A stretch of 63,595 nucleotides of DNA, the filler included, from Licmophora abbreviata (Eukaryota), in NCBI GenBank assembly GCA_900291995.1. It is 12 parts of 12 records of this genome, joined end to end, with 100 filler letters (N's around TTAATTAATTAA, not from the genome) between each part and the next. Parts side by side here need not be neighbours in the genome. Positions count along the whole stretch, not along the records: positions 9,051 to 14,041 come from OLMU01004195.1; positions 14,142 to 15,937 come from OLMU01004196.1; positions 16,038 to 23,518 come from OLMU01004197.1; 9 more parts are not named here. One strand, written 5' to 3'. The first letter of the stretch is position 1. Every line of letters starts with the position of its first letter. The position numbers and the translations under genes are program-made. Positions 7,107 through 59,449 of the stretch are shown in pieces. The notes beneath the pieces were generated by a model. The model saw only the letters and a list, made by a program, of their open reading frames with translations, did not search any database and was not told the DNA's origin.

Positions 7107-9260
7107 ATGAGGATCTTGCTTGTTCTATTTGCAGCGTGCTCCGTTGCTGGCGCCGTTCAGCCTTCCGAATTCTTCGGCGCGACCAACCGCGACGCCTACA
7201 TTGACTGGCATGCGACGTCGAGCTTTCGGTATTCGCATGTCGTATATGCTCCCGCCACTGCTGACACGGGAGCGGCAATCCACTGGAGTATTGTAGACGA
7301 TTCAATTCATTTGGCAGTCGCTGTACGAGCTACCGGATGGGCTGGCTTTGGACTGGCCGAAGCGGGCGCCATGCCGGGAAGCGACATGGTCCTCTACACG
7401 GCCGCCGCGGACAGCGTGACGGATGCACACGTCAAGGANNNNNNNNNNNNNNNNNNNNNNNNNNNNNNNNNNNNNNNNNNNNTTAATTAATTAANNNNNN
7501 NNNNNNNNNNNNNNNNNNNNNNNNNNNNNNNNNNNNNNCAAGACTGGTCACTAATAAATTCTCGAACGGGTGGAGGGTTTTTGATATTTGAGGTCGTTCG
7601 AGCCTTGGATACGGGCGATCCTCAGGATCGGGCCATAGTCAATGATGCAGAAGCCGCAGTATTGCCGCACCGCGTCATTTCGGCATGGGGGGATACAGAA
7701 CAAGTGCTTTATCATGGTCCTCAAAGTAGAGTTAAATTTGCTGTTCGACTCTTCGGAGAGCCAGACCTTGACGAATTAGAAGTCTTTCGGCGATCCATGT
7801 CGACAGCCGCCGAGGGGTCATTCGACGTGCGGGCTGTTAACTATCCCGTCAAGACCGTCGAGACGGAATATGCGAACTTTTGCGCATCCGTTTCCAATTT
7901 TCAAGACCAAGGAGTGCCTGGTGACATTCCCTTGCACGTCGTCGGTATCGAACCCATTGTGGATCAGGCTGCTGTCCGGCACGTCCATCACTTTGTTGTC
8001 TACGGACGAAAGAATGACATCCAGCCATGGGAAGGATGTTTCGATGATGCGAGTGAAGTTGCCTACGCTTGGGCGCCGGGGGAATTTCCCATAACATTTC
8101 CAGCCAATGTTGGTGGTCCTCTTGGTACGAACAGTGGATTTGTGGGGTTCCGGCTCCAGATTCACTACGACAACCCCTTGGGCATCAGTGGTGTCACGGA
8201 CAACAGTGGGGTTCGGTTCTATTACACTAGCCAGCTTCGAGAACACGACATGGGTGTCCTGCGACTAGGCGACCCGCTAGTACTCCTCGGAGGCATACGA
8301 GTTGGGAACGGGAATGGGGACCTTGTGAAACATAGTTTTGGGTGTCCTGGCACGTGCACAACGAGAGCCCTCACAAATATTCCCTCAATAACTATCATGC
8401 GAGAATATCTTCATATGCATGCGACTGGAAAGGTAATGGTCAACGAGCAGATTCGAAATGGACAAGTCATTCGAGCGGGCAAAGTCGAGTTCTGGGACTT
8501 TGATGCTCAAGGAAACCAGGGGGTCCGACAACGAGAATTCGAAGTGCGTCCTGGGGACTCGTTCAAAACGACTTGCTACTTCTCACCAGACACGGACACT
8601 CGTTTTGGACTGGGATCATCTGATGAAATGTGCATGGCGTTCCTATTCTATTATCCCCGAATAGATATGAACAGAGGAAACTCGCATGTATGTGGCTACA
8701 CTGGCATTCCGTTCTGTTCTGGTAGTTGGGAGCAGGAAACGGTGAGCGACTTTACCGGGCTCGGGCGTACCTTTGGAGAATCCAAGGGCTCGTGCCCTGT
8801 GACACCGACGCCGACGATCGCACCGATCACTCTGGAATCGACGCCGACGATCGCACCGATCACTCTGGAATCGACGCCGACGATTGCACCGATCACTCTG
8901 GAACCGACGCCGACGATTGCACCGATCACTCTGGAACCGACGCCGACAATNNNNNNNNNNNNNNNNNNNNNNNNNNNNNNNNNNNNNNNNNNNNTTAATT
9001 AATTAANNNNNNNNNNNNNNNNNNNNNNNNNNNNNNNNNNNNNNNNNNNNACGATTGCACCGATCACTCTGGAACCGACGCCGACGATTGAACCGATCAC
9101 TCTGGAACCGACGCCGACAATGGCGCCGATGACGCCGGGGGCAACGTCACCTATAGGGCCTGACGAGTTGGTGCCGCTGCCCACATCTGACTGTGTTCGA
9201 AGTGGAACGACGTGGGCAATGGGAGTTATTCTTGCATTGTTAGTCTCGGCATATAGGTAG
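7107..9260 (+). CDS. DOMON + copper type II ascorbate-dependent monooxygenase (DBH/MOXD1-like) with Pro/Thr stalk and hydrophobic C-terminus; spans two assembly gaps
   Basis: Signal peptide MRILLVLFAACSVAG; DOMON (GWAGFGL...GAMPGSDMV...QDW); Cu-ligand motifs HVHHF, IHYDNP, HMH, DEMC. The repeat continues after the gap at 9051 to WAMGVILALLVSAYR-TAG (9258-9260). Confidence 0.88.
7439..7538. other. Artificial contig spacer
   Basis: N44-TTAATTAATTAA-N44 (stops in all six frames). Confidence 0.97.
8803..9120 (+). repeat. 30-bp coding tandem repeat (TPTIAPITLE[S/P]), interrupted by an assembly gap
   Basis: Unit ACGCCGACGAT(C/T)GCACCGATCACTCTGGAA(T/C)CG is present on both sides of gap 8951-9050. 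Confidence 0.9.
8951..9050. other. Artificial contig spacer
   Basis: Same 100-nt spacer. Confidence 0.97.
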
Positions 9261-9517
9261 TACGAGTACGCACGGAGCGATTCCACTCAGGTCACGCTTC
9301 TCTTCTTCCTACTTTGCCCATGGAGAATTGCAAGGAGTTGGGCTTCTTCTTTCCTCGGCGTGGCAAATGACTTGCTCCTGTCTAATATTAGTATACAGAT
9401 GAACTCTCTGCGCATGACCTTTGAGTAGTATGATGACACCTTTTACTACCTGCAAACTACAAACACTCCATACAATACCTCTCGTCCTTTTAACTCAGCT
9501 TGTTTGTGAAATTCGAC

Positions 9518-10282
9518 TCATCCAATGCAGTGTCCATCGCAGTCGCTCACTCCGCAGGCGTCCTCAATCAAGTTGGAACAATCCAACGCAATGTTGTTTC
9601 CGCACACGGTGCAAGAGTTGCACTTCAGATCTGTGGTCGGGTCCAGCGAATCGGCGGACTCCGACATGTAGATAGAGCAACGACCGCATTCCAGCAGACT
9701 TTCATCTTCGGGGCAGTCAGTAAGAAAGGTGACAAAGCCCGGCCGGGGCCAGTTGCTCACGCCACACCCCAGGAAATCGTTCGAAGCGCAGCTGATAGTC
9801 TCATCATCGCTGTTTTGGCGCCCCGCCAATCCAAGGATGAGACCCGCAGTCACACCGGCAATGACTACCACAATTCCCAAGAACAAAGCGATTTTCATAC
9901 ATCGCTTGTTGCATGTCGAATCATTGACTCCTTTCGTATCTTTCCTTTGTTCGGACATAGACGAGGTTTGATGTGTCGGGAGGAATAGGATAGCAGCACG
10001 CGGGGCGCGTCGAGTACCTTCTTCAGCATGCTGCATGGAGACGACAGGATGTTCTGTCAGATCAGCCGTGGTCTGTTGTTCTCGCTTGATCTGGGTAGTA
10101 ATGTTCGACGTTCCCGGTTCGGGGTCTTCCGGTGGAGTCAGCGACAGCTTTGCATGGGGTGCAGGACAATGGTTTGACGTCGACCCACCATGACGATCTA
10201 GAAGATCCCTGGAGGGGGCTCGAATTTGCTGTAAGCCTTCGTCCGACTCGCGCTGGTTGGTTTGCTGGGAGATGCCGTACAT
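9518..10282 (-). CDS. Type II single-pass membrane protein with one C-terminal 12-Cys module (family member 1)
   Basis: TM IALFLGIVVVIAGVTAGLILGL, then DCP..CxxC..CNxCxxC..DCSN..C..DCDGHC. Confidence 0.75.
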   Translation of the reverse strand: MYGISQQTNQRESDEGLQQIRAPSRDLLDRHGGSTSNHCPAPHAKLSLTPPEDPEPGTSNITTQIKREQQTTADLTEHPVVSMQHAEEGTRRAPRAAILFLPTHQTSSMSEQRKDTKGVNDSTCNKRCMKIALFLGIVVVIAGVTAGLILGLAGRQNSDDETISCASNDFLGCGVSNWPRPGFVTFLTDCPEDESLLECGRCSIYMSESADSLDPTTDLKCNSCTVCGNNIALDCSNLIEDACGVSDCDGHCIG

Positions 10283-11065
10283 GGTCCCGTGGACTCAGAG
10301 TCCGTTTCGAACTCGATTGATTCAGGAGCTAGGCAAAATGTCAAAATTGGGTTCAATTCAACACTATCTTCAACTCTCTTGGACAGATTCGTATATTGGA
10401 AATAGGTTGCGCACAGTCAATAGAGTCTTTGTGCAAAAGAAACTTGTTTTGTCGCGTGTGATCGACTTGTCTCTCACCGCCGCGGTACGATACTGGTAGA
10501 TTCCAACCACCGCCATCAGCGGAGGACGCGTATCCTAGTGACGAGCCGAAAGCACGCACATGTTCGAATGTATTGGGTCTTGGGCAACATAAGTGAAGTC
10601 TTGGGCGTCCGTATCATGACATTTTCGACCTTTTTGCACCCCTGAAGGCCTCGGTCATGGGTTTTTTGGACTACTGGCACGGTTTCATGATGCAGGCCGA
10701 TACTTGTACCTACGGATGCCGATCGCTAGTATAGGGTCACGATAGGGTCACGATTTCCCGTGCTTCTGATGAGCTGGTAGAATGTAGGTCTAATTGACAA
10801 AACTAAACATTAAGGGTTACTTCTTTTAGAAGTTGCTTGCTACCAAATGCAGACGAAGAGTCCTCAACGCATCACCGACGGTTCGAAAGCTTGGAGCAAA
10901 CGAGAGTATTGAAGCACCCTATCTATTCGGAATATCCTCTTGGGGCGTCGGCGACTTTTGCGCTCCTACTGTAGGCCAGAGTATCCAAACGAGAACGCAC
11001 ACAGCAAATGTGACCCATTCCCGTAAACCTAGAGACGCCCCTGGCACAATCGCACCCCCTCGTGT

Positions 11066-11956
11066 TCACCCTGGTCCAATGCACTGCTGTTCGCAGTCTG
11101 TAATCGCACATGATCCAGTTCCCAGGTTGGTGCAGTTAAGAGATATTCCGTTCTCGCACACGGTACAACTGTTGCATTTTGGATCTGCATCCATATCCAG
11201 TTTCGCAATACTCTCCGTTCGATAGATGGCACACGTTCCACACACCGTGACGCTTGCTGGGCAAGTCGGGCATGACAGTGACGACACATCGTACTTGGGA
11301 CAGTCCGTAAGGACAAGTACGTAGCCGCTTGCAGGCCAATCCTCCACTGCACAGGCGACCGAATCGCCATCCTGGTGGACACAGACTGCGCCCTCATACT
11401 GCAGTCCCCCAGCAGTAGCGTCAGTCGTATCCGTCCCGTCGCCCCTGGACGCGGCCAAGGCAATGCAAGCTCCGATTCCCCCTCCAATCAACAGTAGTCC
11501 GACCAAGAGGCACGCAAAGTAGCATGGTCTACGAGCGAGATCCGCGCTGGCTCCCAAACACCGCAGACACCCCCAGTGTCGCTTGTGCTCTGGAGGAGTC
11601 TCTCCCGTGACAATTGCATCCAGCCGGTACTGATGGTGCTCGTGCAATTCGTCCGCGAAGGAATCCTGATGCAAGGCAGAAGACTCGACCGAGAATCCGG
11701 ACTCTTCCTCGTCTTGTTGCGTAATGTCACTGTCACTCCGCATGAAGGGGATGGGAAGCGTTCTGGAGGAGGGCGCAACGAGAGTAGTTCGGCGTTGTTC
11801 CTGTGGAAGTGCGCGGCGAGGATGAGTCTCACCGAAGGCCTCCTCCTCTTCTGGAAGATTCGTCGTCGACGTCGTCGTCGCAGTGCCGGGTGCCGAAGCT
11901 GTACTTTCATTTGCCAGCACCTGCTGAACATGCGTTTCTCGAGCAATCCTGTACAT
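11066..11956 (-). CDS. Type II membrane protein with a Cys-rich module (family member 2; extra CxxC insert)
   Basis: TM FACLLVGLLLIGGGIGACIALAA; module DWP..DCP..CNSCTVC..NCTN..DCEQQCIG. Confidence 0.75.
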   Translation of the reverse strand: MYRIARETHVQQVLANESTASAPGTATTTSTTNLPEEEEAFGETHPRRALPQEQRRTTLVAPSSRTLPIPFMRSDSDITQQDEEESGFSVESSALHQDSFADELHEHHQYRLDAIVTGETPPEHKRHWGCLRCLGASADLARRPCYFACLLVGLLLIGGGIGACIALAASRGDGTDTTDATAGGLQYEGAVCVHQDGDSVACAVEDWPASGYVLVLTDCPKYDVSSLSCPTCPASVTVCGTCAIYRTESIAKLDMDADPKCNSCTVCENGISLNCTNLGTGSCAITDCEQQCIGPG

Positions 11957-12411
11957 GATGGTTCGATGGATATTCTGGGGACAGTGAACTTCAATCGATA
12001 CAAGTGAGCGAAGCGTCTAGGAAGAGCCAATGGAGAGATGTGGAAAACAGCGTCGTCCTTCCACCTATAGGCGCGACGCCTCATGTCGTGGTTGTTGGAG
12101 CGGATGACCCTAGTCCTGATCCTCACACGCAATGCGCGCGCGACACACGACACAGGACGACGCGTCATCACAGACGATCAACGCCTTCGTCTTTTCATCC
12201 TTATCACTTGAACTGCTGTATGAATGATACAGTACTACATTCCTTCCGTCGCCATGTCAAAATCATATCTCTACGTCGTACTTCTAACACACGCAATCAT
12301 GACGAAAAGACAAACATTTGGATCATGCTAGGCTGGAAACAGGAATGAATGTGCATGATTGATACCTATACTTAAATATCTAAGTACATTCGACTCCTTA
12401 CACCGCAATCA

Positions 12412-13533
12412 TCAGCCTACACAAGTGCCGTCGCAGGTTGTGACCGCGCAAGCCTGGTCCGGAGCAACATTCGAACAGTCGAAAGCAACAGTATCACCGC
12501 AAACAAGACAGCCATTGCACACCTCGCTGTCGCCGTCCACTTGAGAAAGGCGGTCTTCGACAGCCACGATGCACTTGTTGCATTCGAACACATTGAGGCC
12601 AGATCCATCAGGACAATCTTGAAACTGCGTCACAAAAGCGTTCGTAGGAACATCCACCTTGTTACAAAAGTGACCGATACTAGGATTCGGGTCTTGGAAA
12701 CATTCATCAGCTTGCGATTCTTCAGTGGTGGCGGGAGGATCGCCCTTGCCGCATTCGCCGCTGCAGTCCTTAAATGCGCATTCTTCTTCCGGGGAGATGT
12801 TGGTGCAATCGTAGGCTACACTGTCGCTTGTTCCGCAGAGAATGCAGCCATTGCACACTGGTGTATTCCCGTCAATGTCAAAGACACTGTCGGCAAGAAC
12901 GACAAGGCACGTTTCACATTCGGCAACGCGCGCTTCGTCGGTATCTGGACATCCTGTGAAAAGTGTAATCAGGGCAGCGGACGGAACCCCACTGGCGTAG
13001 CAGATGATACTACCATCATCCGTCGCGAAGCAATCGTCGGCCCTCAAAGGAAGCGGGGGCTCGGTCGCTGGATCCTTACTTTCGTCGTCCGATCCAGACA
13101 AGGCGATGGCAATACCAGCGCCGGCTCCTGCAAGGACAAGGACGCCAACAATGGCAAGGATAATCCACAATTTCTTGCGATTCTTCGGTGACTCGTGAGG
13201 TTCATCGGGTCTGACTTTTCCTGGCGACTTGTCGTCAACGACGTCTGCGACGACCGCCACGTTCATGATACGGTTCATGATTCGTTCTTCCATGGCGTTG
13301 TCGTCGACCAGCTCGGCTTGGAGGCCTTTTTCTGGGTCAGTTTTGGAATGGCTCGCTGAAAGGATGATTTCTCCATCCGAGTCATCTTTACTTAGATCAA
13401 TATCGGTCAGTTCTTCAGTCGGATTAAACTCAATCTCATTCTGATCGTCGTTTTGTGAACCGGCCATGCCTGGCACGGACTCGGCACCAGGTTTCGGCGT
13501 GGGTTTCATTGAATCTCGAGCAACCTTGTACAT
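12412..13533 (-). CDS. Type II membrane protein with two tandem 12-Cys modules (family member 3)
   Basis: TM LWIILAIVGVLVLAGAGAGIAIAL; two copies of CF..C..CP..CxxC..CNGCxxCG..DCxN..C..C.G.C. Confidence 0.8.
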   Translation of the reverse strand: MYKVARDSMKPTPKPGAESVPGMAGSQNDDQNEIEFNPTEELTDIDLSKDDSDGEIILSASHSKTDPEKGLQAELVDDNAMEERIMNRIMNVAVVADVVDDKSPGKVRPDEPHESPKNRKKLWIILAIVGVLVLAGAGAGIAIALSGSDDESKDPATEPPLPLRADDCFATDDGSIICYASGVPSAALITLFTGCPDTDEARVAECETCLVVLADSVFDIDGNTPVCNGCILCGTSDSVAYDCTNISPEEECAFKDCSGECGKGDPPATTEESQADECFQDPNPSIGHFCNKVDVPTNAFVTQFQDCPDGSGLNVFECNKCIVAVEDRLSQVDGDSEVCNGCLVCGDTVAFDCSNVAPDQACAVTTCDGTCVG

Positions 13534-14041
13534 GATACGGTTTGCTTCTGTTCGCTAGATACCCTGGTAGTCAATGTCTTCTTCGTTTGGGCTGAAGAAG
13601 CTGCGTGTACTACAGTAACTCTCTTTTTGTTGGTGTCTGTTGTTTGCTTAGCTTTTTTAACCACATCGAACGCCACGTATGGTCGCATCGCGAGCAAGAT
13701 TGAGATCTTGACCCACCATCCGCGCGAACTGTTGGTGTCGCGTTTCAATAAGTAAATATGCGTCATGTCAAGATCGAAAATATCAATTTCAAAGTTCATA
13801 TTCGGGAGGAGATGACGGTAGGACGGACATACCGTGGACTTAGTAGGCTGAGGCCGGAAGCCATTAGCCGGATAGACCAAGCAGGTGCAGTACGATCTGC
13901 GATGTACACCTGTAGTAGAGCGACCAGGCAAGCTACCATACTACCCGGTACCCGCATCATCTATACTCGTACACTTCAACGCGAAATATGCTCCGTATCG
14001 ATACCAAAATACAAGATCTTTCTCGTCAGTATTGTATTTCT

Positions 14042-14141
14042 NNNNNNNNNNNNNNNNNNNNNNNNNNNNNNNNNNNNNNNNNNNNTTAATTAATTAANNN
14101 NNNNNNNNNNNNNNNNNNNNNNNNNNNNNNNNNNNNNNNNN
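14042..14141. other. Artificial contig spacer
   Basis: Same 100-nt spacer. Confidence 0.97.
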
Positions 14142-15216
14142 TGTTGCATAATTCCGATTCGCCATCGATATCACCGACGGTCTCTTCACTGGCAATGACG
14201 CACCTGTCGCAGAAAAATACATTGAGACCGGTGGGATTGGGACACCCACTGTAGAGTGTGACAAAGGAAGTCGTGGGGACGTCGTCCTGTGTGCAGAAGA
14301 TATCGTCAGCGCCTTCGATGCATTCGCCTTGCACATTTGCAGTGGACGTGGCAGGATCGCCCTTTCCGCATTCGCCACTGCAGTCCCTGAATGCACACTC
14401 TTCATTGGGAGCAATGTTGGTGCAGTCGTAGGCAACTGTATTGCTCGTTCCACAGATCATGCATCCATTGCAGACAGGTGTGTCGCCAGTTAGGTCAAAC
14501 ACACTTTCCGTTTGAGCGATGACGCATCGCTCGCATTCGGAAACACTCTCTTCGTCCGTGTCGGGGCAATCAGAGAAGAGTGTGACTAAGCCTTCTACCG
14601 GTATGTCTTCTGAGTAGCAGAAAATGGAGCCATCCTCCCCTGTAAAACAATCGTCCGCTACCAACGTTGGGGCTACAGTGCGGGGCTGTACGCCACTGTC
14701 TCCGCCCCCACCGGAGAGACCGACACCGAGACCAACTCCGAGTCCAACAAGCGCGACTAGTGCCGCAATTCCAATTAGCAACCACATTCTCGTCCTGCGC
14801 TTGGGCTCGTCGTCGTCGCCAGCAGCCCTCTTTGAAGTGACGACAGCATCCTCGTCCACGGCCACCACCTCCGTCACCACGGGCGAGCTTTTCATGAGTC
14901 GTTCCATGATGCGCTCTTCGAGATCGCTGTCCGATCGAGCAAGTTCAGCCTCGATGACTTTGGGAGCGGATGCTGTTGACTCTGGAATCATTGAGGTACT
15001 TGCTTCGGCCTCATGCTCCCCATAGCGAGCAGTATAGGTATTGGCATTGCTCGTGGCGGATGCTACTGAAGGTTCATGATGATTTTCCTCGTCCGAGTTG
15101 GGAGTAAACTCAATATCTGCTTCCTGCGTGGAACTACCGCCCACAGACTGAGCACCTGGTTGAGAAAGCGGGGCGTCCATGCCGCGCGGTACCTTTTCAC
15201 CATCAGTGCTGCTCAT
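14142..15216 (-). CDS. Type II membrane protein with two Cys modules (family member 4; 3' end lost in gap)
   Basis: TM WLLIGIAALVALVGLGVGLGVGL. Module 1 closely matches member 3 (TPVCNGC..AYDCTNI.P.EECAF.DCSGECGKGDP). The ORF runs into the gap at ELCN. Confidence 0.8.
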
Positions 15217-15499
15217 GACGATGATTAATTTTTAGGAGTCTTGGGTTTCGACTTTCTGTCGTCTCGTCTCGTCTTACAAGAGGGGTGAAGATAAAGACAA
15301 AGTGAAACGGAGAACATTCACTAGACGAGAGGTCGACGAAGCGCGAGTGACGTTTTCAGTTTGTGCTTCGGTAAAAAATGAAAAGCCTCATTTTTACAAG
15401 AAAATATATACGTGTCTGAATAAAAGGAATGAAATATATCGACAAGACTACATGTCTGATCACACATAAATACAATCGGCCGCGCCGACAAATTCCATT

Positions 15500-16365
15500 T
15501 ACAACAATCGGAGAAGACTGCGACAAAGAAAATCTACCGGTATGTCTTCTGCAAAGCAGATACTGGACCCGACGTCCCCCGTAAGGCAATCATCTGGGGC
15601 TGCTGCAGGGGACTGTCCGCCACTGCCTCAGTCCCCACCAAACAGACCGACGCCGCGGCCAGCACCCCGAGTCCAACAAGCGTGACCAGGGCTGCAACTC
15701 CAAGGATGACAAGCCACATGCTTAACCTGCCCATGGGCTGCTTGTTACCAGACGCCTTCTTTCCTGAAGGGACACGGTCTCTGGTAGAAGCTAAGAAAGC
15801 ACCCTTCACCCCCATCACGACCGGTGCACATTCCATGGGTTGTTCCATGCACTCTTCCAGGTCGATGTCCGATCGACGCTGCTCCTCAGCCACGACTATA
15901 GGAGCGAATGTTGTCGGTTCTTGCAAAATTGAGAAAANNNNNNNNNNNNNNNNNNNNNNNNNNNNNNNNNNNNNNNNNNNNTTAATTAATTAANNNNNNN
16001 NNNNNNNNNNNNNNNNNNNNNNNNNNNNNNNNNNNNNGAGCATGATCGTCCTTGTTTGTGGCGGGTGGAATGCACTCTTCGAGGTCACTTGCCGATCGAG
16101 CGGGTTCAGCCTCGGTGGCTTTGAGAGCAGTCGGCTCTGGAATCATTGAAGTACTTGTAACGGCCTCCTCCTTGCACCGAGCATCATCACTGGTGTTACT
16201 ATGTGTGACTGATGAAGGCTCGAGACGATTTTCCGCCTCCGAGTCGGGAGAAAACGCATGAGGCGCTTTCTGCGTCGTGGCATCACTACCGCCCTGAGCT
16301 CCTGGTGGAACAAGCGGGAGGTCCGTGCCGCTCTGTGCGTTTTCTCCGTCACCGCTGATGCACAT
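15500..16365 (-). pseudogene. Degenerate/truncated copy of the Cys-module membrane gene (family member 5)
   Basis: N-terminus aligns with member 4 (STSMIPE..AE.ARS.SDLEE). TM is present. The module start (DDCLTGDVGSSICFAEDIPVD, VAVFSDC) is split over different frames, and similarity ends near 15500. Confidence 0.65.
15938..16037. other. Artificial contig spacer
   Basis: Same 100-nt spacer. Confidence 0.97.
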
Positions 16366-18004: not shown

Positions 18005-20582
18005 TCATGAATTGTTCAGTGATGATTCGATTATACGAACATAGCCGGTCCATGTGGTGCTTTGCATGGCGCCAATTGCCGCGATTTGACCATCGGACGA
18101 GGACGATACAGAGATACCAAATTCATCGCCCATCGCATCGCCTTGGACTCGATTGGTCACCGTGTCCCATTCACCCATGTCTTGCAGATACTTGTGAACG
18201 CTCACTTGGTTGGAACCGTACAGACCGACTGTCAGTGTGTTGCTAGCTAGCTGCAAAGACCAGCCCATGCGGTCGTTTGCCGCCTCGCCTACCAAGGGTG
18301 CACCCAGTGGCGACCACTCTTTGGTTTTAGTGTCATAATCGTATGATACGACGAGCCCAGCGTTTCGAAGGGAGGACGGGGTATCTTTCCAGGGAGCACC
18401 AATGGCGACGCGGTTTGATTGCGTTCGATCCAGCGACACGGCTGTGCCAAAGCGATCGTCGAGTTGGACGGGAGACACGCTGTTGACGATGTCAGGCAGT
18501 GGTTCCCATCCACCAAAGACCCACTCGAAGCACCGTACGTATCCACCGTGTTCTGTATTGCGCGGCGCCCCGGACTACTAGGAACCTACCGTCATTGGAT
18601 AGATCCACGTCCCACCCGAACCAATCGACGCTGTTTGAACCATCCAGTCGTTGTCCAACCCTTGTCCAAGCGTCTCCCGCCTCGGCTAGTTCGAACACAC
18701 GGACTTGTCCATTCAGAGTCAAATTCTCACTGTCATGGTAAGGCGAACCGACCGCGAGACGCTGTCCATTGCCTGCCAGGGCCAGACTCATACCGAACAA
18801 GTCAGCGACAGCCTCGCCTGGTAGTTCCTGTCCAAGTGGCTGCCACTGGTCGGCCTGTAAATGAAAGATACGGACGTTTCCACTCCGATCGCCGGCAGGA
18901 CCGTCCAAACCAGGCTCCGATACTGCGAGGCGCATTCCGTCGTCACTCAACGAGACGACGTAACCAAATTGATCATTGTTGTTGCGACCGTAAAGTATCT
19001 GTCCAAGCTGCTGCCAACTGTCCGATTCAGTCTCCTTGAATACCTGCACGCGTCCGCTCTGATAAAGTCCTTCTCCAGAAAACCGTCGAGAGCCCACTGC
19101 CACGATCTTTCCATTAGCCGACAAAGACACGGAATAGCCGTACTGCTCAGCCGGTTGACTGCCCGACAAGGTGACGAGTGTCGTAAGTGTTGTGGTAGAG
19201 AAAATTGATGTTGGTGACGATGACGGAGTACTCGACGGAGATGCAGATAGTGTGGGAAACAACGAAGGCGATGGACTGGGCGCCACCGATGGACTTGTCG
19301 ATAACGTGGAAGTCGGAGTCGAGGATGGTGCGACTGTTGGTATGTCGGTTGGAGTCATAGATGGCATTGCGGAGGGCTCTGTTGATGGCATCTGGTTCAG
19401 TATTTGCGTCGGGCTGGTCGTGAGTCCCGACTGTATACTGGTTGGACGAAAGGTGGGATCTGCAGTTCTCGGAGTGGATGCCGTCGTTGGAACTTGTGTT
19501 GGGCTGCGAGAGGGAGCCACAGACGAGCTTCCATTATTCCAGACGGGACCATCGATCGTTTCCGACGAAGATGTATCTTCTTTGGGCGTCGTCTTCGAGA
19601 CAATCAGTGATACAACAATCCCAATAATCGCAAGTAGTATCAAGAGTGTCGCTGCCATGAAGATCCAGCGGTTTCGAGAGGAATCTACAGGTGCTTTCGC
19701 CTCTGTCTCCGACAAATCTTGCGGAATCGATTCATCTGCAGTATAGTTGGTGCCGCATATGGATGATTCGGTGTTTCGCACGACTATTATGCCAGACTCC
19801 ACATCGCCTGATTGTCTCGTGATGTTACTCTTTTTGAGAGTAACCATGCTGTGATCTGAAGGAGCTCCTTTGGGTTCTTGTTTCGTAGTGGACGAGGGCA
19901 AGATATTGGTTAGGAGGCCTCGAATGCCGCCGCTGCTCTGACTACTGTCGGAACCCAGACTTTTCGCATCATCATTACTCGTATCTGTGTTGACGTTGTT
20001 ACTCTTGGTGCTGTCCCACGGCTCGACGCTGTCCAGGTCAATGGGCCCATTATCAGAAAGCGCTTCTCTTCTTATTGGACTTCTTTTTCTGGGTGGATTT
20101 CTCGAAGCCAATCGTGGAGGCAGCAAGTTCGTTGCAGTATCGCCATTGCTGGCTGCGAACCAGGCCGTGAGGAGGGATTGTTGCTGTTTGGCCATGTAGA
20201 CCAGTCGACGCACGTGAGCCTCCTCTCGCTTCTTTCTCAACCTCGAATTTTGCTGTTCATCGTCATCACTGTCATCCTCATGGGAATACGAAGGCACGGA
20301 CGGGGCTTGTTTGCGAAGTTGGGACTGCGGTGATGCTTGCGGGGACGGTACTGGAGAGCGCAAAAGCATTCGGTTGGATTTGTCATATTTTGGGACCGGA
20401 GCCGCGTTCCCCCAGGACACCGTCTTTCCAAGACGGAGGCTGCGCGGTGGTGTCGCTGGAGTCTGCGATGGAGAACCTCCAAAGAGTCGAGGAAGAAAGC
20501 GTCGGGATCCGCTCGAGTTGGAACTGGAGGTGGAAACAACGGAGCTATCAACACTCGCAGAATCATTTTGCGATTTAGCCAT
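18005..20582 (-). CDS. Type II membrane protein: Ser-rich cytosolic N-terminus, TM, P/S/T stalk, FG-GAP (integrin-alpha-like) beta-propeller; 1-nt frameshift near 18572
   Basis: TM WIFMAATLLILLAIIGIVVSLIV; repeats YGYSVSLS, FGYVVSLS, FGMSLAL..VGSP, FGWDVDLS, FGTAVSL..IGAP, MGWSLQL, FGISVSSS. Removing one C restores VVGAPRNTEHGGYVRCFEW and joins ORF 18005-18478. Confidence 0.8.
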
Positions 20583-32530: not shown

Positions 32531-35260
32531 CTATGGGTCTGGTCGATACTCTTGTGACCTCTTATAGTAGAGAGATTCTTTGGGAGGTCGATGAAACCTT
32601 TGCAGGTTGTTGACACGGGGCGTCTCCGCGACTGCATTCACTTTTGAGTCTAGTTTCCCTTCCCATACACTTTCCATATCCGTAAGATCATCCAATATAC
32701 CTCCCGTGCTCCTAGCTGACCTCGTGTCGAGCTGAACGAACTGAGTGCCCTTGGGAGTCGCTTGATTAGTAACGAATCCACCCTTGGGCGTTTGCACCTC
32801 GCAATCTTCCAATCTCGCCTGTTTGGGAGTTTGCTTTCGATGTCCAGTAGATGTGGGCGAGAGTGCAGAGAACGTCCGCATTTGTACAGAGTCGTCATTG
32901 CCGTGCTTAGTAGCAGCACTTGCTGCTTCATTTTCTCCTATCGGGGCCAGAGGCGACGGTCTGTATGCTTCCGAATGCAAGGACAAGTACTTGTCCTCGT
33001 TGCCTGGCATGACAATCGAATCAGTTGCTTCTGACCTGCCGTCCGACAACATTTGCGCATACTTTTCTGTAGCTTTCATAATTTCAGCGTACTGATGAGC
33101 GAACAAAGACAACGCAAAAACGTGAGTTTGAAAGGAACCTAAATAATGCATTGTCATGCGAGGATCGAATCCTGTACATACCGTAGTCCCTTCAGGTTCT
33201 CTCGTTGCCGATGCAGTCGACGGGCTGTCCACTTGGGATACTTTGAGATCTCGGTCTGACACCTGGAAACTTCTGTTCGACGCTTGGAGACTTCTGTTTG
33301 ATTTGAGGTACATTTCCGAGTCAGTTGGTGATGCCATATCTCTATAAGAAGATCGATAGAGAGGTTGACCGACAGAATCTTTTGTCGAAATACTTAGCGA
33401 ATCCTCCGATTCCATCGAGCCGCGAACACGCCACTCGTCATTCGCGTCATGGTATGAGCCCGACTCTCTTCGCAGTCTCCAAATGACAAAACCAATTACG
33501 CCAACAGCAACCACGCTCAAACCGACGATCATTCCAACCAGGGCAGGGCCCTCCAGCTTTGAAGAGCTGCTCGTGAGGGGAGACTCCAGAGAGGATGCAC
33601 TGGGTTGAACCCCATCATCGAAGAAATCTGAAGCACCCGACAACTCGTTGAGATACTCGCTGTACTTTTCAGTGAGGGGCTTTGTAACGATATCATCAAA
33701 AAGGACATTACCAATATCTTTCTGACTGCGTTGCCAGACATCACCGGCAATCTTCATCTCAATCTTCAGCTGCGAGGTCTGCAAGCCCCGAGAAGCACTA
33801 GGTTGGATCTGGCCCAGTCGTCGAGTACCTTCGAGGGTCTGCTCCGTTACCAAAACAGACGCAATTGTGATCAGGAAGTCGCTAGATTGCTCAATGTTGG
33901 CCCTGATAAAATTTAGTGTGGTCGACTCAAAGACTGCCTCAGTACCGACATCCATCAACTGACTCGCAGTAAAGCTTACAGATGTCAATGCTACACGTTC
34001 CGTCGAGCTGGTCGGCATCGAGGTTGGTAAATTTGCTGGCGTTTCCGATGGAGCCGCGCTAGGTTGATGAGATGGTGATACCGTCGGATCGTCCGTTGGG
34101 GACACTGACGAGACCATGCTTGGTTGATACGAAGGGTAAGTACTCGGTCTATCTGATGGTCGCACTGATGGAGACACACTGGGGGCCCTGCTAGGGGACG
34201 CGGAAGGTACCGTGGAGGGCTGACTGCTCGGCGAGGCACTCGGGCTCTTAGTTGGTTGCAACGAGGGAGAGAGACTGGAGGCTCCGGTCGGATGTACGGA
34301 TGGACTTCCACTCGGAACGCTTGACGGAGAAACGCTCGGACGCGCAGAAGGAGAAAACGACGGCATTACAGTAGGAGCATCGGATGACTGTACTGTTGGT
34401 CTTGCTGTCGGGCCTCCACTGGGTTGGAGCGTGGGCGAGACGCTGGGAGCACTTGACGTCGTTGGGCTCGTCGAGTGCGACAATGTCGGGAAATTGGTGG
34501 GCATCCTCGATGGCCCCCAGCTTATCGATGGCCACTCGCTGTAAAGTGCTGTCGGCTGCAGTGATATCGTCGGAAGACTGGAATGCAACGCACTTGGTGA
34601 AGTTGTTGGTCCATGGGGTAACACCGCCGTTTCTGTCGGGGCAATAGATGGCATCATTGACATGGATGGAGTTCCAGATGACTCCTCCGTCGGCATGGAA
34701 GATGGAACAAGCACTGTTGGAGATGATGACGGGCTTTGAGTTGGAACCGCAGAGGGACTGGGCGAAGGAATCATTGTCTCTGTTGGAGCATCTGTCGGTA
34801 GCGAAGATGGACGATCTGAGGGGGGTGCACTGGGGATCATGGACGGGGAGGGAGATGGCTCCGGCGAATCCGTTGGATAGAATGTTGGTGAATCAGTTGG
34901 GGTCAAAGTGGGTGCTGGGGAGGGCTGCACTGACAAAGTCGGCGCGCTCGACCGAGTAAGAGTTGGTGGTGCGGAGGGCAGGATACTCGGAGCATAGCTT
35001 GGCTGATCGTTTGGGTCAAGCAAGACATCTGTTGGGGCAGAACTAGTTGGCAGGTTTTGCACTACAGGTGTGGGAGCCGGCATCATTGACGGTGCCATCG
35101 ATGGGTCGACAAGGACTGCCGTCGGGCCAGTTCCCGAGTTCAGAGTCTCATTCTTCTCACATGCCGCAAGTGGTAACAGTACAAGAAGAACCAGCGCATA
35201 TCTCCACTGCAACATTTTGGGTTGCGGAAAGATAGTCAAGGCACGATTCTCTTGAGCCAT
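32531..35260 (-). CDS. Type I membrane mucin-like protein with a long P/S/T stalk, SEA-like domain (RRL, RGL), TM and long cytosolic tail; likely start 35215; in-frame intron 33092-33181
   Basis: Signal MLQWRYALVLLVLLPLAAC; many PS/PT repeats; TM ALVGMIVGLSVVAVGVIGFVIWRL; 90-nt GTATGT...CATCAG intron. Confidence 0.8.
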   Translation of the reverse strand: MAQENRALTIFPQPKMLQWRYALVLLVLLPLAACEKNETLNSGTGPTAVLVDPSMAPSMMPAPTPVVQNLPTSSAPTDVLLDPNDQPSYAPSILPSAPPTLTRSSAPTLSVQPSPAPTLTPTDSPTFYPTDSPEPSPSPSMIPSAPPSDRPSSLPTDAPTETMIPSPSPSAVPTQSPSSSPTVLVPSSMPTEESSGTPSMSMMPSIAPTETAVLPHGPTTSPSALHSSLPTISLQPTALYSEWPSISWGPSRMPTNFPTLSHSTSPTTSSAPSVSPTLQPSGGPTARPTVQSSDAPTVMPSFSPSARPSVSPSSVPSGSPSVHPTGASSLSPSLQPTKSPSASPSSQPSTVPSASPSRAPSVSPSVRPSDRPSTYPSYQPSMVSSVSPTDDPTVSPSHQPSAAPSETPANLPTSMPTSSTERVALTSVSFTASQLMDVGTEAVFESTTLNFIRANIEQSSDFLITIASVLVTEQTLEGTRRLGQIQPSASRGLQTSQLKIEMKIAGDVWQRSQKDIGNVLFDDIVTKPLTEKYSEYLNELSGASDFFDDGVQPSASSLESPLTSSSSKLEGPALVGMIVGLSVVAVGVIGFVIWRLRRESGSYHDANDEWRVRGSMESEDSLSISTKDSVGQPLYRSSYRDMASPTDSEMYLKSNRSLQASNRSFQVSDRDLKVSQVDSPSTASATREPEGTTVCTGFDPRMTMHYLGSFQTHVFALSLFAHQYAEIMKATEKYAQMLSDGRSEATDSIVMPGNEDKYLSLHSEAYRPSPLAPIGENEAASAATKHGNDDSVQMRTFSALSPTSTGHRKQTPKQARLEDCEVQTPKGGFVTNQATPKGTQFVQLDTRSARSTGGILDDLTDMESVWEGKLDSKVNAVAETPRVNNLQRFHRPPKESLYYKRSQEYRPDP

Positions 35261-40609: not shown

Positions 40610-41644
40610 TTAGTTGCCCTTGCCCTTGCCTTTTCCTCCTTTCTTCATGGCCCCTCCCTTGGAACCACCCTTGCCCTTGCCTCCTTTCTTCATGGCTCCT
40701 CCCTTGGAGCCACCCTTGCCCTTGCCTCCTTTCTTCATGGCTCCTCCCTTGGAACCGCCCTTGCCCTTGCCTCCATCTTTTTTCTCACCCTTCGATCCCA
40801 TCTTTTTGTCGCCTTTGCCTTTAGGCATGGGGTTGGCAGAGGGAAGGAGAACGGCATCGATGACATGAATGACTCCATTGCATGCCTCGATATCGAAGGC
40901 AATAATCTTGGAATCGTTGACCTTCGGGGGGTGCAAGGAAATCTTCACCTTGTCGCCCTGTAGAGTCTTGACCTTCTGTCCATCTTTCAAATCTTCGGCG
41001 AAAACTTCCCCGGCGACCACATGGTAAAGCAGAATGTCTTGGAGATCGCCCTTGTTCTTGGGCTTCAAGAGTGTGTCCAAGACACCAGACGGGAGGTCGC
41101 CGAAGGCCTCGTCGGTAGGGGCGAATACGGTGAAAGGTCCGTCACCCTCAAGAGCGTCCACGAGATCAGCGGCAACGAGGGCCGCGACAAGTGTGTCAAA
41201 GTCGCTATTACTGGAGGCAATCTCGACAATCGACATGCACTTTTCGGGTTTACCGCCCTTGCCACCCTTTCCGCCCTTGTAGGCGCCCTTCGAGCCCTTG
41301 CCACCCTTGGGTCCTCCTTTGGGGCCGCCTCCACCCTTGGAGCCTTTCCCCTTGCCCTTGCCACCCTTGGGTCCTCCTTTGGCGCCGCCTCCACCCTTGG
41401 ATCCTTTCCCTTTGCCCTTGCCACCCTTGGAGCCTCCTTTGGCGCCGCCTCCACCCTTGGAGCCTTTTCCCTTGCCCTTGCCACCCTTGGAGCCTCCTTT
41501 GGCGCCGCCTCCACCCTTGGAGCCTTTTCCTTTTCCTTTGCCCTTGCCCATTTGCATGGCTCTTTCCGAGGTGGTAGCCTCGGTCGTGTGGACGAGCAGC
41601 GCCACGGCGCCGAACAAAGCCGTTAGAATCTGGGAGATCTTCAT
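40610..41644 (-). CDS. Secreted fasciclin (FAS1) domain protein flanked by Lys/Gly-rich repeat blocks
   Basis: Signal peptide; FAS1 motifs [41 protein letters not shown]; blocks [16 protein letters not shown] (x4) and [15 protein letters not shown] (x3). Confidence 0.9.
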
Positions 41645-44894: not shown

Positions 44895-46637
44895 ATGACG
44901 AGGCATGCGGGAAGGAAATGGCATCTATTAGTCCTTTTTGCCCTGTTGATTCCTTGCGTGGTCGCGCAATCTATGCCCCGGGAACGGTATGGCGACACTT
45001 CGCTTCCCATGTCTTACTACCGTCGCAAGACCTTGTCCTACGGAGATCTGCAGCCGTTGCCTGGGGAACTTTCACAGCGACCCAGTCGGCAACAGCAAGA
45101 AAATTCGTGTTCCTTGTGCGGGAACTATACCCTTTCCCCTGACGTGCTTCCTCACTATCCTCACTTGGATCCAGATGAAGAACCCATTCCGAAGGGCCTG
45201 TCATGTCAGGACTTTGCTGGTTTTGCTCAGGAATTCCCAACGCCCTCAGTTGAATGCTATGGTTTCAAATCAGGGTTCTTGCATGCGTGCTGCAGCGCGC
45301 CACCGCTGCACGAATGCGAGACCACGCTGCGAACGGATCTACTCAATGGATACGATGCGGCCGTTATGCCGGCCAATGCCACCACACCGGGTGCTCCACT
45401 CTCGATTGAGTTTCACTTGGACTTTTATCACATTTCAGATCTAGACGTCCAAGACTCTACAGTTGAAATCTTCGTGTGGGTCTGGTTGGTGTGGAAGGAT
45501 GACCGACTGGTGTGGGATACTGACGAGCACTGCGCGTTCAGCACAACGTTTCGTGCCTCGTTGGATGCGGAACGCACCGAAATCTGGGTTCCTGACGTGG
45601 ATTTGTACAATCAACAACACGGCGTCCAGAAAATGCCTGAAGCCTTTGCGGAAGTATTCAGTGACGGTACCGTCTATTGGAGACGTAATGGGGGGCTGAA
45701 GGCTCTCTGTCTGTTTTCGGGGTTGCGCCAGATGCCATTTGATACACTGGGATGTCGATATCTATTTGGTGTTTGGACGCGCATGGGGCAAGTCAACCTG
45801 CTTTTCGAGGATGAGGGAGGATTTGCGGTGGGGGATTTTCTTGCCAAGTATGCCGAGTATCGACTTGTTCCAGATCGAGTCAAGGTGGGCTATATGGGCA
45901 TATCGAAAAGCGGAGATCCAGCAGACGGCTTGTATTACGACTTCTATTTTGAACGGGCTCAGCGCTTCTATGTCGTCGGACTTGTGATACCTGCCATTCT
46001 ATTTACGATATTAAGCTTTGGAATGTTCCTGCTGGATCTGAGAGTTGGAGAACGGCTGTCGTACGGTATGGCGTTGCTGTTGGTACTGGCAGCACATCAA
46101 ATTGTGACGACCTCATATCTTCCGGTGACGAACGAACGACTTTGGGCGGTCGTCTTGATCAATGCGTCGTTTTACTGGGTGGTCTTTGGCCTGCTGGAAT
46201 CGGTGTTTGTGGGGTACCTTTTCTTTACAGGATATGACGCAGCTCATCTCACTGCCGAACACCACGGAAATTTGTCATTGTATGACGATCATACCCCTCG
46301 CCGATCGGAGCGTGTCATTACGGGCGTTCCAGACGTCGTTCTTGAGGATGCTTCCAACGACGGTTCCAATGAGGAAGCTCAGTTAAATGGTCGAAGCGAC
46401 AATCGTCCCGGGGTCACATTTGGAGAGTCGGTGCGATCTGTCTTTACGCTCAAACAATCCATGATGTCCAGCAAGCGCGATACGAACACGAACCGAAAGC
46501 TTATCCGTGCTATCGACAAGTGGTCTTTCCGAATAGTACCGCTGTCGTACTTCATCTTTCTGGTTGTGTTCTTTGCTACGCTTCCTTTGTGGGAAGAGAG
46601 CGGGGAGGATATTTGGGCACCCGCAAATGAGCTTTGA
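44895..46637 (+). CDS. Pentameric ligand-gated ion channel (Cys-loop/nAChR-like) subunit with an extra N-terminal Cys-rich module
   Basis: Signal peptide; W.D.RL.W, IWVPDVDLYN, V.SDG.V.W, Cys-loop CLFSGLRQMPFDTLGC; R...FY...VIP M1, GERLS M2, M3, and M4 IDKWSFRIVP. Confidence 0.9.
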   Translation: MTRHAGRKWHLLVLFALLIPCVVAQSMPRERYGDTSLPMSYYRRKTLSYGDLQPLPGELSQRPSRQQQENSCSLCGNYTLSPDVLPHYPHLDPDEEPIPKGLSCQDFAGFAQEFPTPSVECYGFKSGFLHACCSAPPLHECETTLRTDLLNGYDAAVMPANATTPGAPLSIEFHLDFYHISDLDVQDSTVEIFVWVWLVWKDDRLVWDTDEHCAFSTTFRASLDAERTEIWVPDVDLYNQQHGVQKMPEAFAEVFSDGTVYWRRNGGLKALCLFSGLRQMPFDTLGCRYLFGVWTRMGQVNLLFEDEGGFAVGDFLAKYAEYRLVPDRVKVGYMGISKSGDPADGLYYDFYFERAQRFYVVGLVIPAILFTILSFGMFLLDLRVGERLSYGMALLLVLAAHQIVTTSYLPVTNERLWAVVLINASFYWVVFGLLESVFVGYLFFTGYDAAHLTAEHHGNLSLYDDHTPRRSERVITGVPDVVLEDASNDGSNEEAQLNGRSDNRPGVTFGESVRSVFTLKQSMMSSKRDTNTNRKLIRAIDKWSFRIVPLSYFIFLVVFFATLPLWEESGEDIWAPANEL

Positions 46638-58513: not shown

Positions 58514-59449
58514 TCATGGTTCGACTCGTACATCGTGCGAGACAGGGGCGGACGTCTCGCGGGCGGGTGGTCTTGGACGATTGGGCATGTTACTTCTGGC
58601 TGACATGCCTCCATCAACCATCCAAGTCGTTCCCGTAATCCAGTCGTTCGTTATCAACGGTATCATTGCCTGCACCACCTCTTCTATCGATCCCACCTTT
58701 TGTACGGGCAAATGTCGTGTCCACATGTCCACGACGTCCGGATTGCTGAATGCTTCTGCTGTTCGCTCGACCGGAACGACCCCAGGCGCCACACCATTGA
58801 CACGAATCCTATCCGGAGCATACTCCAGTGCCAGCCCCCGAGTCAAACTGTCCAGAGCAGCCTTACTGGCCGAATAGGCCGTCATGAATTCGACACTGCG
58901 GTCACCATGAATCGAAGACACATTGATGATGACACCACCCTCACTACTTCTCTTCAACATGCGCCGCCGCGCGAGACGGGAGAGCTGCAGAGGTGCATGC
59001 AAGTTGACGGAAAGCGTTTCGTGCCAGGCGGAAAGATCGTCATCGTCGTCGTCGGAGGCCAACTTCGTGACAATGCCGGCGTTGTTGACAAGGACATCGA
59101 GACCTTCTGGCCAAATAGACGAGTCAATTTCCTGAAAGAGTCTTTCAATCGCCTTTGGACTGCGAAAGTCACACTGTATGATTCCATCGCAGATACCTCT
59201 TTCATGACGAATGGAGTCGCGTGTTGTCACAGCACCCTCGTGTCGGGTGTGATAGTGAACTAGCACGTGTGCTCCCTGTTGCGCGAGCTGTGTGGCGATG
59301 CCAGCCCCGATACCTCCGGATGAGCCTGTGACAAGACATCGCTTGCCCGCTAGATCAAATGCCAAGGCCTTGCGTGTACTCAGACTCCATATAAGTAGTA
59401 AGGAGAGTAACGACACCGGAGACGAGATGGAAGGCCGGAGGGTCGTCAT
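58514..59449 (-). CDS. Classical SDR (FabG/glucose-1-dehydrogenase-like) with an N-terminal signal peptide
   Basis: TGSSGGIG, LVNNAG, INVSSIHG, YSASK, RVNGVAPG, ITG....VDGG. Confidence 0.9.
   Translation of the reverse strand: MTTLRPSISSPVSLLSLLLIWSLSTRKALAFDLAGKRCLVTGSSGGIGAGIATQLAQQGAHVLVHYHTRHEGAVTTRDSIRHERGICDGIIQCDFRSPKAIERLFQEIDSSIWPEGLDVLVNNAGIVTKLASDDDDDDLSAWHETLSVNLHAPLQLSRLARRRMLKRSSEGGVIINVSSIHGDRSVEFMTAYSASKAALDSLTRGLALEYAPDRIRVNGVAPGVVPVERTAEAFSNPDVVDMWTRHLPVQKVGSIEEVVQAMIPLITNDWITGTTWMVDGGMSARSNMPNRPRPPARETSAPVSHDVRVEP

Follow-up and report, generated by a model that had tools for sequence, protein, structure and literature searches.

Does a row of related genes for cysteine-rich membrane proteins define a new kind of surface domain, and if so, what could such a domain do? 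The question is raised by a locus in a 63,595-nucleotide stretch of the Licmophora abbreviata genome assembly GCA_900291995.1 (the whole stretch is referred to as the window). In this locus, four genes, A to D, and two gene fragments, E1 and E2, all on the minus strand, occupy 9.5-16.4 kb, and each gene encodes a single hydrophobic helix followed by one or two copies of a module with 12 cysteines (Cys). On the sequence evidence presented below, this module is a real, uncatalogued domain family of diatom-type marine eukaryotes. The description itself, covering the genes with their topology signals, the existence of the family, the degree to which it is conserved and its lack of a catalogued match, we regard as highly probable. 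The reading that we prefer for the locus as a whole, namely, that it is an old tandem cluster of type II coat-binding proteins carrying a new diatom surface/wall-binding domain, has in our judgment somewhat less than an even chance of being correct.

The gene array and the topology of its products

The window is eukaryote-like in its long, intron-free open reading frames (ORFs), in its domains, which include a fasciclin domain, the ligand-binding domain of a Cys-loop receptor, and FG-GAP and PT repeats, and in its GC content of about 50%. It is a scaffold or a concatenation whose parts are joined by 11 linkers (N44-TTAATTAATTAA-N44) with stop codons in all six frames; several of the listed ORFs cross linkers and include runs of X. 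Two of the linkers, those at 14042-14141 and 15938-16037, fall within the gene array. The features of the array and the linkers are the following (aa, amino acids; TM, transmembrane helix; the underlying evidence is given in parentheses).

9518-10282, minus strand: gene A, 254 aa, starts with MY, predicted type II (ORF, Cys positions, tblastn, profile match, charge flanks)
9824-9892, minus strand: TM of gene A, aa 131-153
9521-9805, minus strand: single module of gene A, aa 160-254
11066-11956, minus strand: gene B, 296 aa, starts with MY, predicted type II (ORF, tblastn, profile match, charge flanks)
11450-11521, minus strand: TM of gene B, aa 146-169
11069-11398, minus strand: single module of gene B, aa 187-296, with a two-Cys insertion
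12412-13533, minus strand: gene C, 373 aa, starts with MY, predicted type II (ORF, tblastn, profile match)
13099-13170, minus strand: TM of gene C, aa 122-145
12739-13047, minus strand: module 1 of gene C
12415-12717, minus strand: module 2 of gene C
14142-15216, minus strand: gene D, at least 358 aa readable, predicted type II (ORF, tblastn, profile match)
14716-14787, minus strand: TM of gene D, aa 144-167
14356-14664, minus strand: module 1 of gene D
14143-14337, minus strand: module 2 of gene D, cut by a linker
14042-14141, no strand: linker that removes the 3' end of gene D, including the last third of module 2
15534-15937, minus strand: fragment E2, a D-like pseudogene piece (matches D aa 75-217 and, in another frame, 182-208)
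15938-16037, no strand: linker separating E2 from E1
16038-16365, minus strand: fragment E1, the 5' part of a further D-like copy (matches D aa 3-101 at 48% identity)
7439-7538 and 8951-9050, no strand: linkers outside the array; linkers also occur at seven more places (sequence)

The four ORFs are paralogs far beyond chance, with tblastn E-values of 1e-71 for C versus D, 1e-22 for A versus B and 9e-14 for A versus C. Identities among the paralogs range from 28 to 66%, with 43% over 361 columns between C and D, and 21 of the 23 nucleotides around the ATG are common to B and C. No further 12-Cys copies were seen elsewhere in the window by tblastn with the array proteins. These results uphold the first-pass annotation of the locus, made from the sequence alone, in its claims that there are four minus-strand coding copies, that three of the proteins (A, B and C) begin with MY, and that one TM is followed by one, one, two and two acidic Cys-rich modules, respectively.

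The same annotation counted one degenerate copy, which turns out to be two fragments, E1 and E2, that lie on different contigs and cover an overlapping segment of the gene. Fragment E2, whose 5' end is missing at the linker, retains the TM; it is frameshifted at the start of the module, and its homology to D, which at the DNA level comes in patches of 70-85% identity, stops about 35 residues into the module. Fragment E1 consists of an ATG followed by 109 open codons that reach into the linker, and shares with D the 5' context AATCATCGTCATG. Both fragments align to D residues 75-101, yet differ from each other, so they are not consecutive halves of one ordinary gene; they derive either from two additional copies or from a single one that carries an internal duplication. 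Because module 2 of gene D is cut by a linker, D is incomplete in the assembly and a natural truncation is not implied. Counted as a lower bound, the array thus contains four intact genes and one decayed copy. A 33-nucleotide (nt) coding repeat (TIAPITLEPTP) flanks the linker at 8951-9050 on both sides, and this continuation of the repeat past the linker suggests that the linkers join truly adjacent contigs broken at repeats.

Proteins A to D share a common plan, in which a Cys-poor N-terminal region precedes one internal hydrophobic helix and the modules. The 15 residues on either side of the helix contain three to six lysines and arginines before it versus one after it, and the N-terminal hydropathy is low, with no signal-like N-terminal hydrophobic stretch. 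By these signals, read from crude hydropathy and charge-count scripts and not from a dedicated predictor, A to D are N-in/C-out single-pass type II (signal-anchor) proteins. The type II surface topology originally put forward is consistent with the positive-inside flanks and with the Cys-rich C-terminal part.

The 12-cysteine module as a domain family

The module spans approximately 100 aa. All five complete copies in the window carry the 12 Cys, to which the copy in gene B adds two in its insertion, and the window modules are acidic, with a net charge of -10 to -20. A profile built from the six window modules and searched against 1.84 billion representative proteins at E<=1e-3 retrieved 58 proteins, including 33 at E<=1e-10 and five at E<=1e-30. 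Two of these, a repeat protein (P0043) and a leucine-rich repeat (LRR) protein (P0052), produced short partial alignments only and were dropped as false matches. Each of the 56 genuine relatives contains one to three modules, in agreement with the variable copy number noted at the outset.

An alignment of 67 complete modules (five from the window and 62 from the relatives) yields the signature C-x9/10-C-x15/16-C-x8-10-C-x2-C-x10-20-C-x2-C-x2-C-x7-11-C-x7/8-C-x4-C-x3-C, so that the 12-Cys spacing pattern first described in the array proteins is right and generalizes to the entire set. The 12 Cys columns are 91-100% conserved, and exactly 12 Cys are present in 54 of the 67 modules. Among the other residues, G14, P24, C-P, D-C-S-N and D-C-x-G-x-C are conserved at 73-93%, and conserved acidic columns precede Cys 4, 9 and 11; C5 and C6 are separated by a loop of variable length (9 to 20 residues). 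The average module consists of 11.7% C, 11.0% D, 5.3% N, 5.2% P and 2.8% Q, with a mean net charge of -13. Losses of Cys are rare and paired (C10 with C12 twice, C1 with C2 once), which hints that the residues lost together are disulfide partners.

The description of the module as unrecognized withstood comparison with Pfam and with experimental and viral protein structures. The four window proteins have no Pfam match at E<=1; the module stretches of these four proteins have none at E<=10; and across the 58 proteins retrieved by the profile, no Pfam family matches the module at E<=0.01. A word-index protein search with the whole protein C returned no match, and the ESM Atlas gave no usable match for C residues 160-373 or P0061 residues 195-420. 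Searches of PDB sequences produced nothing stronger than T-cell receptor (TCR) alpha chains (best E 0.07) and a GATA finger (E 0.18). No description of a 12-Cys diatom module was found in a searched library of CC-licensed and bioRxiv papers.

The predicted structure leads to the same outcome. For module 1 of gene C, AlphaFold2 reached a predicted local distance difference test (pLDDT) score of 78.8 with six sequences and of 87.6 with 35 sequences (predicted template modeling score, 0.76; five models, pLDDT 84-88). The predicted module is all-beta; of its six strands, four make up a sheet in the N-terminal part, and the C-terminal part is a pair of hairpins. Neither of the two whole-module models had a Foldseek match in the PDB at E<=1e-3 or a match at Z>=5 in the wide VIA comparison with 48,161 chains, where the best Z scores were 4.1 and 4.2, the latter for 45 residues that resemble a propeller blade; in the viral library BFVD, the best E was 0.29, with no fold match. 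These negative results pertain to the whole module as the query, and no novelty is claimed for its C-terminal half.

With few exceptions, the relatives come from metagenome or run assemblies and bear no protein name. The named ones include a Cylindrotheca closterium protein (CAJ1937708.1, the same as UniRef100_A0AAD2FKI9), which bears the automatic UniProt name "TNFR-Cys domain-containing protein", and a Cylindrotheca fusiformis EukProt entry. Two MMETSP transcripts are also among the relatives, so that distant members of the family are transcribed. The secreted architecture of the family consists of a hydrophobic N-terminus, a pro-region and one to three modules, in many cases with stalks rich in proline, threonine and serine (P/T/S). 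A hydrophobic C-terminal tail is present in 15 of the 56 relatives, and an R-x-L-[QED] motif lies no more than 16 residues before the first module in 21 of the 56; among the 36 relatives whose first module is complete and preceded by 20 or more residues, the motif occurs in 18. In diatom biosilica-associated proteins, RXL marks the site of propeptide cleavage, and up to 2017 it had been reported from no other proteins (PMC5647440; PMC4557024; PMC5525289; PMC9650480). Other relatives are fusions of the module with a subtilase (P0050, E 2e-19), a trypsin (P0054, E 1e-41) or LRRs (P0051).

The type II layout recurs in five of the 56 relatives (P0010, P0030, P0032, P0047 and P0048), and the MY start is common to A, B and P0010. 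The N-terminal regions of the array proteins had been considered disordered. They are indeed Cys-poor but not featureless, because C and D share four cytosolic motifs with relatives from other organisms, namely, P0030, P0032 and P0048. In the alignment of these five proteins, the first motif is PGAE[AS][IV]xG; the second is acidic-aromatic (EIEFNPT or DEYTVTSP, with the pattern [DE]-[EI]-[EY]-[FY]-T); the third is helix-like (LEE..R[IV][ML]..N-APVATV); and the fourth is K[RK]KW directly before the helix, with L-S directly after it.

Several side observations concern the relatives. A second, different Cys-rich stretch precedes or follows the module in P0017, P0020, P0034, P0007, P0016 and P0014; P0007 and P0016 end in a knot-like ...CCPGYTC...YNLC tail, and a similar one occurs in P0034. 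For P0037 and P0060, which come from the same source, the longest contig on record measures 24,740 nt in each case; the two may share a contig, in which case the genes would be clustered in another organism as well. Searches for the loci of P0010 and of the aligned P0030, P0032 and P0048 gave no confirmed locus.

The copies in the array are old. A quick IQ-TREE analysis of 109 columns, in which many forks are unresolved, groups the modules of A, B and P0010 (SH-aLRT 91) and unites the four C and D modules in one clade (SH-aLRT 99), within which C1 pairs with D1 (89) and C2 with D2 (87); hence, the module was doubled before C and D split. Nei-Gojobori counts were made for six comparisons, five between genes and one between modules 1 and 2 of C. 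In all six, pS is 0.73-0.85 and pN is lower than pS, for example, 0.195 versus 0.747 for module 1 of C and D, and 0.36 versus 0.84 for the A and B modules. This saturation of synonymous sites implies that the copies are old and precludes an estimate of dN/dS, and the lower pN implies purifying selection. The family had been portrayed as fast-evolving, a view at odds with these counts, with the conservation of the 12-Cys scaffold and with the persistence of the cytosolic motifs across organisms. The birth-and-death evolution that was also proposed fares better in part: the decayed E2 fits some gene death, but the copies are old and not recently expanding.

The six sequencing runs listed for the window are marine metagenomes of the kind marked 'DNA?'; five of them, from two studies, contain part of the window's DNA, and the sixth contains next to none. 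Metagenome contigs on 9051-14041, from four runs of the two studies, are 151-553 nt long and mostly at least 99% alike; they bridge no gene pair and show no joints. The few variants in these four runs, where coverage is thin, are not concentrated in the modules.

Possible functions of the module

The architectures of the relatives, so far as they can be read from sequence features, favor wall or coat binding. The module would face the cell exterior or the lumen of a secretory compartment, with the N-terminal tail in the cytosol. The ectodomain is probably oxidized, the 12 Cys most likely forming six disulfides, given the even Cys count, the non-cytosolic position of the module and the confident compact beta model. 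Its recurrence as an accessory domain, both on proteases and on RXL-processed proteins with stalks and anchors, suggests that the module might bind or anchor proteins to the cell coat, by which we mean the extracellular matrix or the organic casing that belongs to the silica wall. The coat ligand would probably be reached through the conserved acidic residues together with Ca2+ or polycations, a suggestion that draws on the strong, conserved acidity of the module and on the analogy to frustulins. Finally, the type II proteins would tie the coat to cytosolic partners via their conserved motifs, acting as membrane-wall linkers or surface sensors. We infer the ligand, the location, the role and the disulfide state, and advance this coat-binding or membrane-wall linker mechanism as a tentative proposal.

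A more elaborate version is a long shot as a whole. Here, the module would have a new fold and would be an acidic, Ca2+-binding domain specific to diatoms and held by six disulfides, with which proteins, secreted proteases among them, are fastened to the organic casing of the wall, and the type II proteins of the cluster would be transmembrane sensors of wall integrity or assembly that report the state of the coat or position cytosolic machinery via the PGAEAI, LEE...APVATV and KRKW motifs.

Several observations weigh against wall or coat binding by the array proteins. The diatom label of the family derives from three named distant relatives and from the RXL motif. This motif is absent from the four window proteins and from the five type II relatives, so that the evidence for wall-protein processing is confined to the secreted branch. 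No RNA run containing the locus is present among the listed runs. The analogy to frustulins that would suggest Ca2+ and coat binding is one of composition only, and the module is about twice as long as the frustulin acidic Cys-rich (ACR) domain of approximately 50 aa and lacks its motif. In addition, the spacing C4-x2-C5-x17-C6-x2-C7 is that of a GATA or zinc-ribbon metal site.

The original suggestion of a recognition role takes the proteins as receptors for gametes, pathogens or bacteria, with an ectodomain under diversifying selection in a birth-and-death array. The receptor-like type II layout, the conserved cytosolic motifs that could signal, the tandem arrangement with at least one decayed copy, the variable C5-C6 loop and the divergence of the paralogs all agree with this scenario, which we nevertheless find unlikely: the copies are old, with pS of 0.73-0.85 in the five between-gene comparisons and pN below pS, the few metagenome variants, seen at thin coverage, do not accumulate in the modules, and the presence of the module in proteases and in secreted, stalked RXL proteins would be more usual for a domain with a general role in binding or anchoring. 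Metal binding, in which some or all Cys would be thiolate ligands, either in a Zn or Fe knuckle or for Cu or Cd sequestration in surface metal homeostasis, draws on the invariant CxxC and CxxCxxC motifs, on the GATA/zinc-ribbon spacing in 24 of the 67 modules, on the conserved D-C pairs and the GATA finger in the PDB sequence search, on a copper monooxygenase encoded by a neighboring gene, and on a heterokont Cys-rich family with a DCXXC motif that has been proposed to be a metallochaperone (PMC7972479). The GATA match is not significant, however, and the C5-C6 loop, with its 9 to 20 residues, is not constant in length. Cys4 metal sites are uncommon in the places where the module occurs, namely, on the non-cytosolic side of the membrane and in secreted proteins, and both the even Cys counts and the joint losses resemble disulfide partners, all of which makes a metal-binding domain quite improbable.

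That the module could be a divergent TNFR/NGFR cysteine-rich repeat is implied by the automatic name of UniRef100_A0AAD2FKI9. TNFR repeats have approximately 40 residues and six Cys, and resemble the module, which is itself probably extracellular and disulfide-rich, in these two properties and in the arrangement C-x2-C-x2-C-x7-11-C-x7-C of its C-terminal half. The first-pass annotation denied any match to TNFR spacing; this stands for the complete PROSITE-type pattern, which fits only five of the 67 modules, but not for the C-terminal five-Cys part of that pattern, which fits 43. With its 12 Cys, the module unit is 2.5 times longer and has a four-strand N-terminal sheet; Pfam TNFR_c6 is not matched at E<=10 by the protein with the automatic name, in a set made up of P0070, five other relatives and four window module stretches, at E<=1 by the four window proteins or at E<=0.01 by the 58 proteins, and no TNFR chain is among the rows listed by Foldseek or VIA for the whole-module models. 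The Cys resemblance, limited to the C-terminal half, explains the automatic label but leaves membership unsupported, and we consider membership highly unlikely. That the module belongs to a known diatom family, such as the frustulin ACR, the pleuralin PSCD, silicanin and SiMat7-like proteins, or pTF.CatCh1/ISIP2b, with which it was compared by their descriptions and not by alignment, we deem extremely improbable. Frustulins are, similarly to the family described here, modular diatom proteins with acidic Cys-rich extracellular repeats (PMC4557024), the secreted 12-Cys relatives likewise have a signal peptide and a propeptide that ends in a motif of the RXL type, and a Ca2+-dependent coat-binding role is plausible for the module by analogy. 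However, an ACR of about 50 aa contrasts with a module of about 100 aa and 12 Cys, the window proteins are type II and not secreted, and the frustulin motif C[EQ]GDCD, which the earlier annotation had reported as lacking, is indeed absent from all 60 proteins (0/60). PSCD, of about 90 aa and rich in Pro, Ser, Cys and Asp (PMC4557024), matches the module in length and in its C, S and D content, but PSCD is proline-rich whereas Pro accounts for only 5.2% of the module. No pleuralin chain is among the PDB sequence matches at E<=10, the PDB presumably including a PSCD structure. Silicanin-1 (Sin1) and the SAPs, which are membrane proteins of the silica deposition vesicle, share with the family a single-pass design that combines a luminal part containing Cys with a short, conserved cytosolic stretch, for which contacts to cytosolic partners have been proposed, as well as, in the secreted branch, RXL propeptides; they differ in being type 1 proteins with a signal peptide, the SAPs being Ser-rich and the NQ-rich, partly helical luminal domain of Sin1 spanning 341 aa with 18 Cys (PMC5525289), as opposed to an acidic module predicted to be all-beta. 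SiMat7-like proteins, for their part, have eight conserved Cys. The combination of signal peptide, RXL, Cys-containing luminal domain and anchor recalls both silicanin and pTF.CatCh1, and the latter family is also almost exclusively diatom, secretory and membrane-anchored, with motifs of the D-C-x-x-C type. pTF.CatCh1, though, has 20 Cys over approximately 190 aa, three CXC motifs, a signal peptide and a C-terminal TM (PMC7972479), whereas CXC occurs at C6-C7 in only two of 66 modules.

A further known system that resembles the family is that of the mucin-like diatom adhesion proteins CaFAP1 and CaTrailin3, in which Cys-rich modules alternate with P/T/S-rich stalks and the Cys repeats are diatom-restricted, with no known domain match. 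As far as their description allows a comparison, CaTrailin3 differs in having repeats with six conserved Cys, and the window proteins have no P/T/S stalks (bioRxiv 10.1101/2023.03.06.531300).

The characterized diatom surface and wall families are few, namely, frustulins, pleuralins, silaffins, cingulins, silicanins and SAPs. To these, the module adds a compact building block, strongly conserved and outside Pfam, for which no structural relative was found; it is used in at least three ways, in wall-type secreted proteins, in protease fusions and in type II proteins with cytosolic motifs. Should wall or coat binding prove true, the family would provide a handle on the connection between the plasma membrane and the frustule, and the module could serve as a small surface-display tag. 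The automatic TNFR-Cys label in UniProt would be corrected. If the module is merely another lineage-specific Cys-rich repeat with an unknown ligand, its value is limited to annotation.

Neighboring genes in the window

The gene next to the array, at 7797-8950 on the plus strand and continuing at 9051-9149, encodes a homolog of copper type II ascorbate-dependent monooxygenases with both Pfam domains. It ends in an 11-residue P/T-rich tandem repeat (PTPTIAPITLE) that resumes past the linker. An FG-GAP repeat protein is encoded at 18492-20582 (minus strand) and a 909-aa protein with PT repeats at 32531-35260 (minus strand). Both are probable surface or matrix genes, and the neighborhood is rich in extracellular-type proteins. 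A fasciclin-domain protein (40610-41644, minus strand; E 5e-37) has a signal-like N-terminus and lysine/glycine/serine-rich repeats, a composition reminiscent of lysine-rich diatom wall proteins. At 44895-46637 on the plus strand, a 580-aa ORF contains the ligand-binding domain of Cys-loop (neurotransmitter-gated) ion channels (E 1e-23). The protein encoded at 58514-59449 (minus strand) is similar to short-chain dehydrogenases and enoyl-ACP reductases, and its N-terminus ends in ...KALA/FDL (the slash marks the junction), which resembles the junction of signal peptide and phenylalanine in heterokont plastid-targeted proteins.

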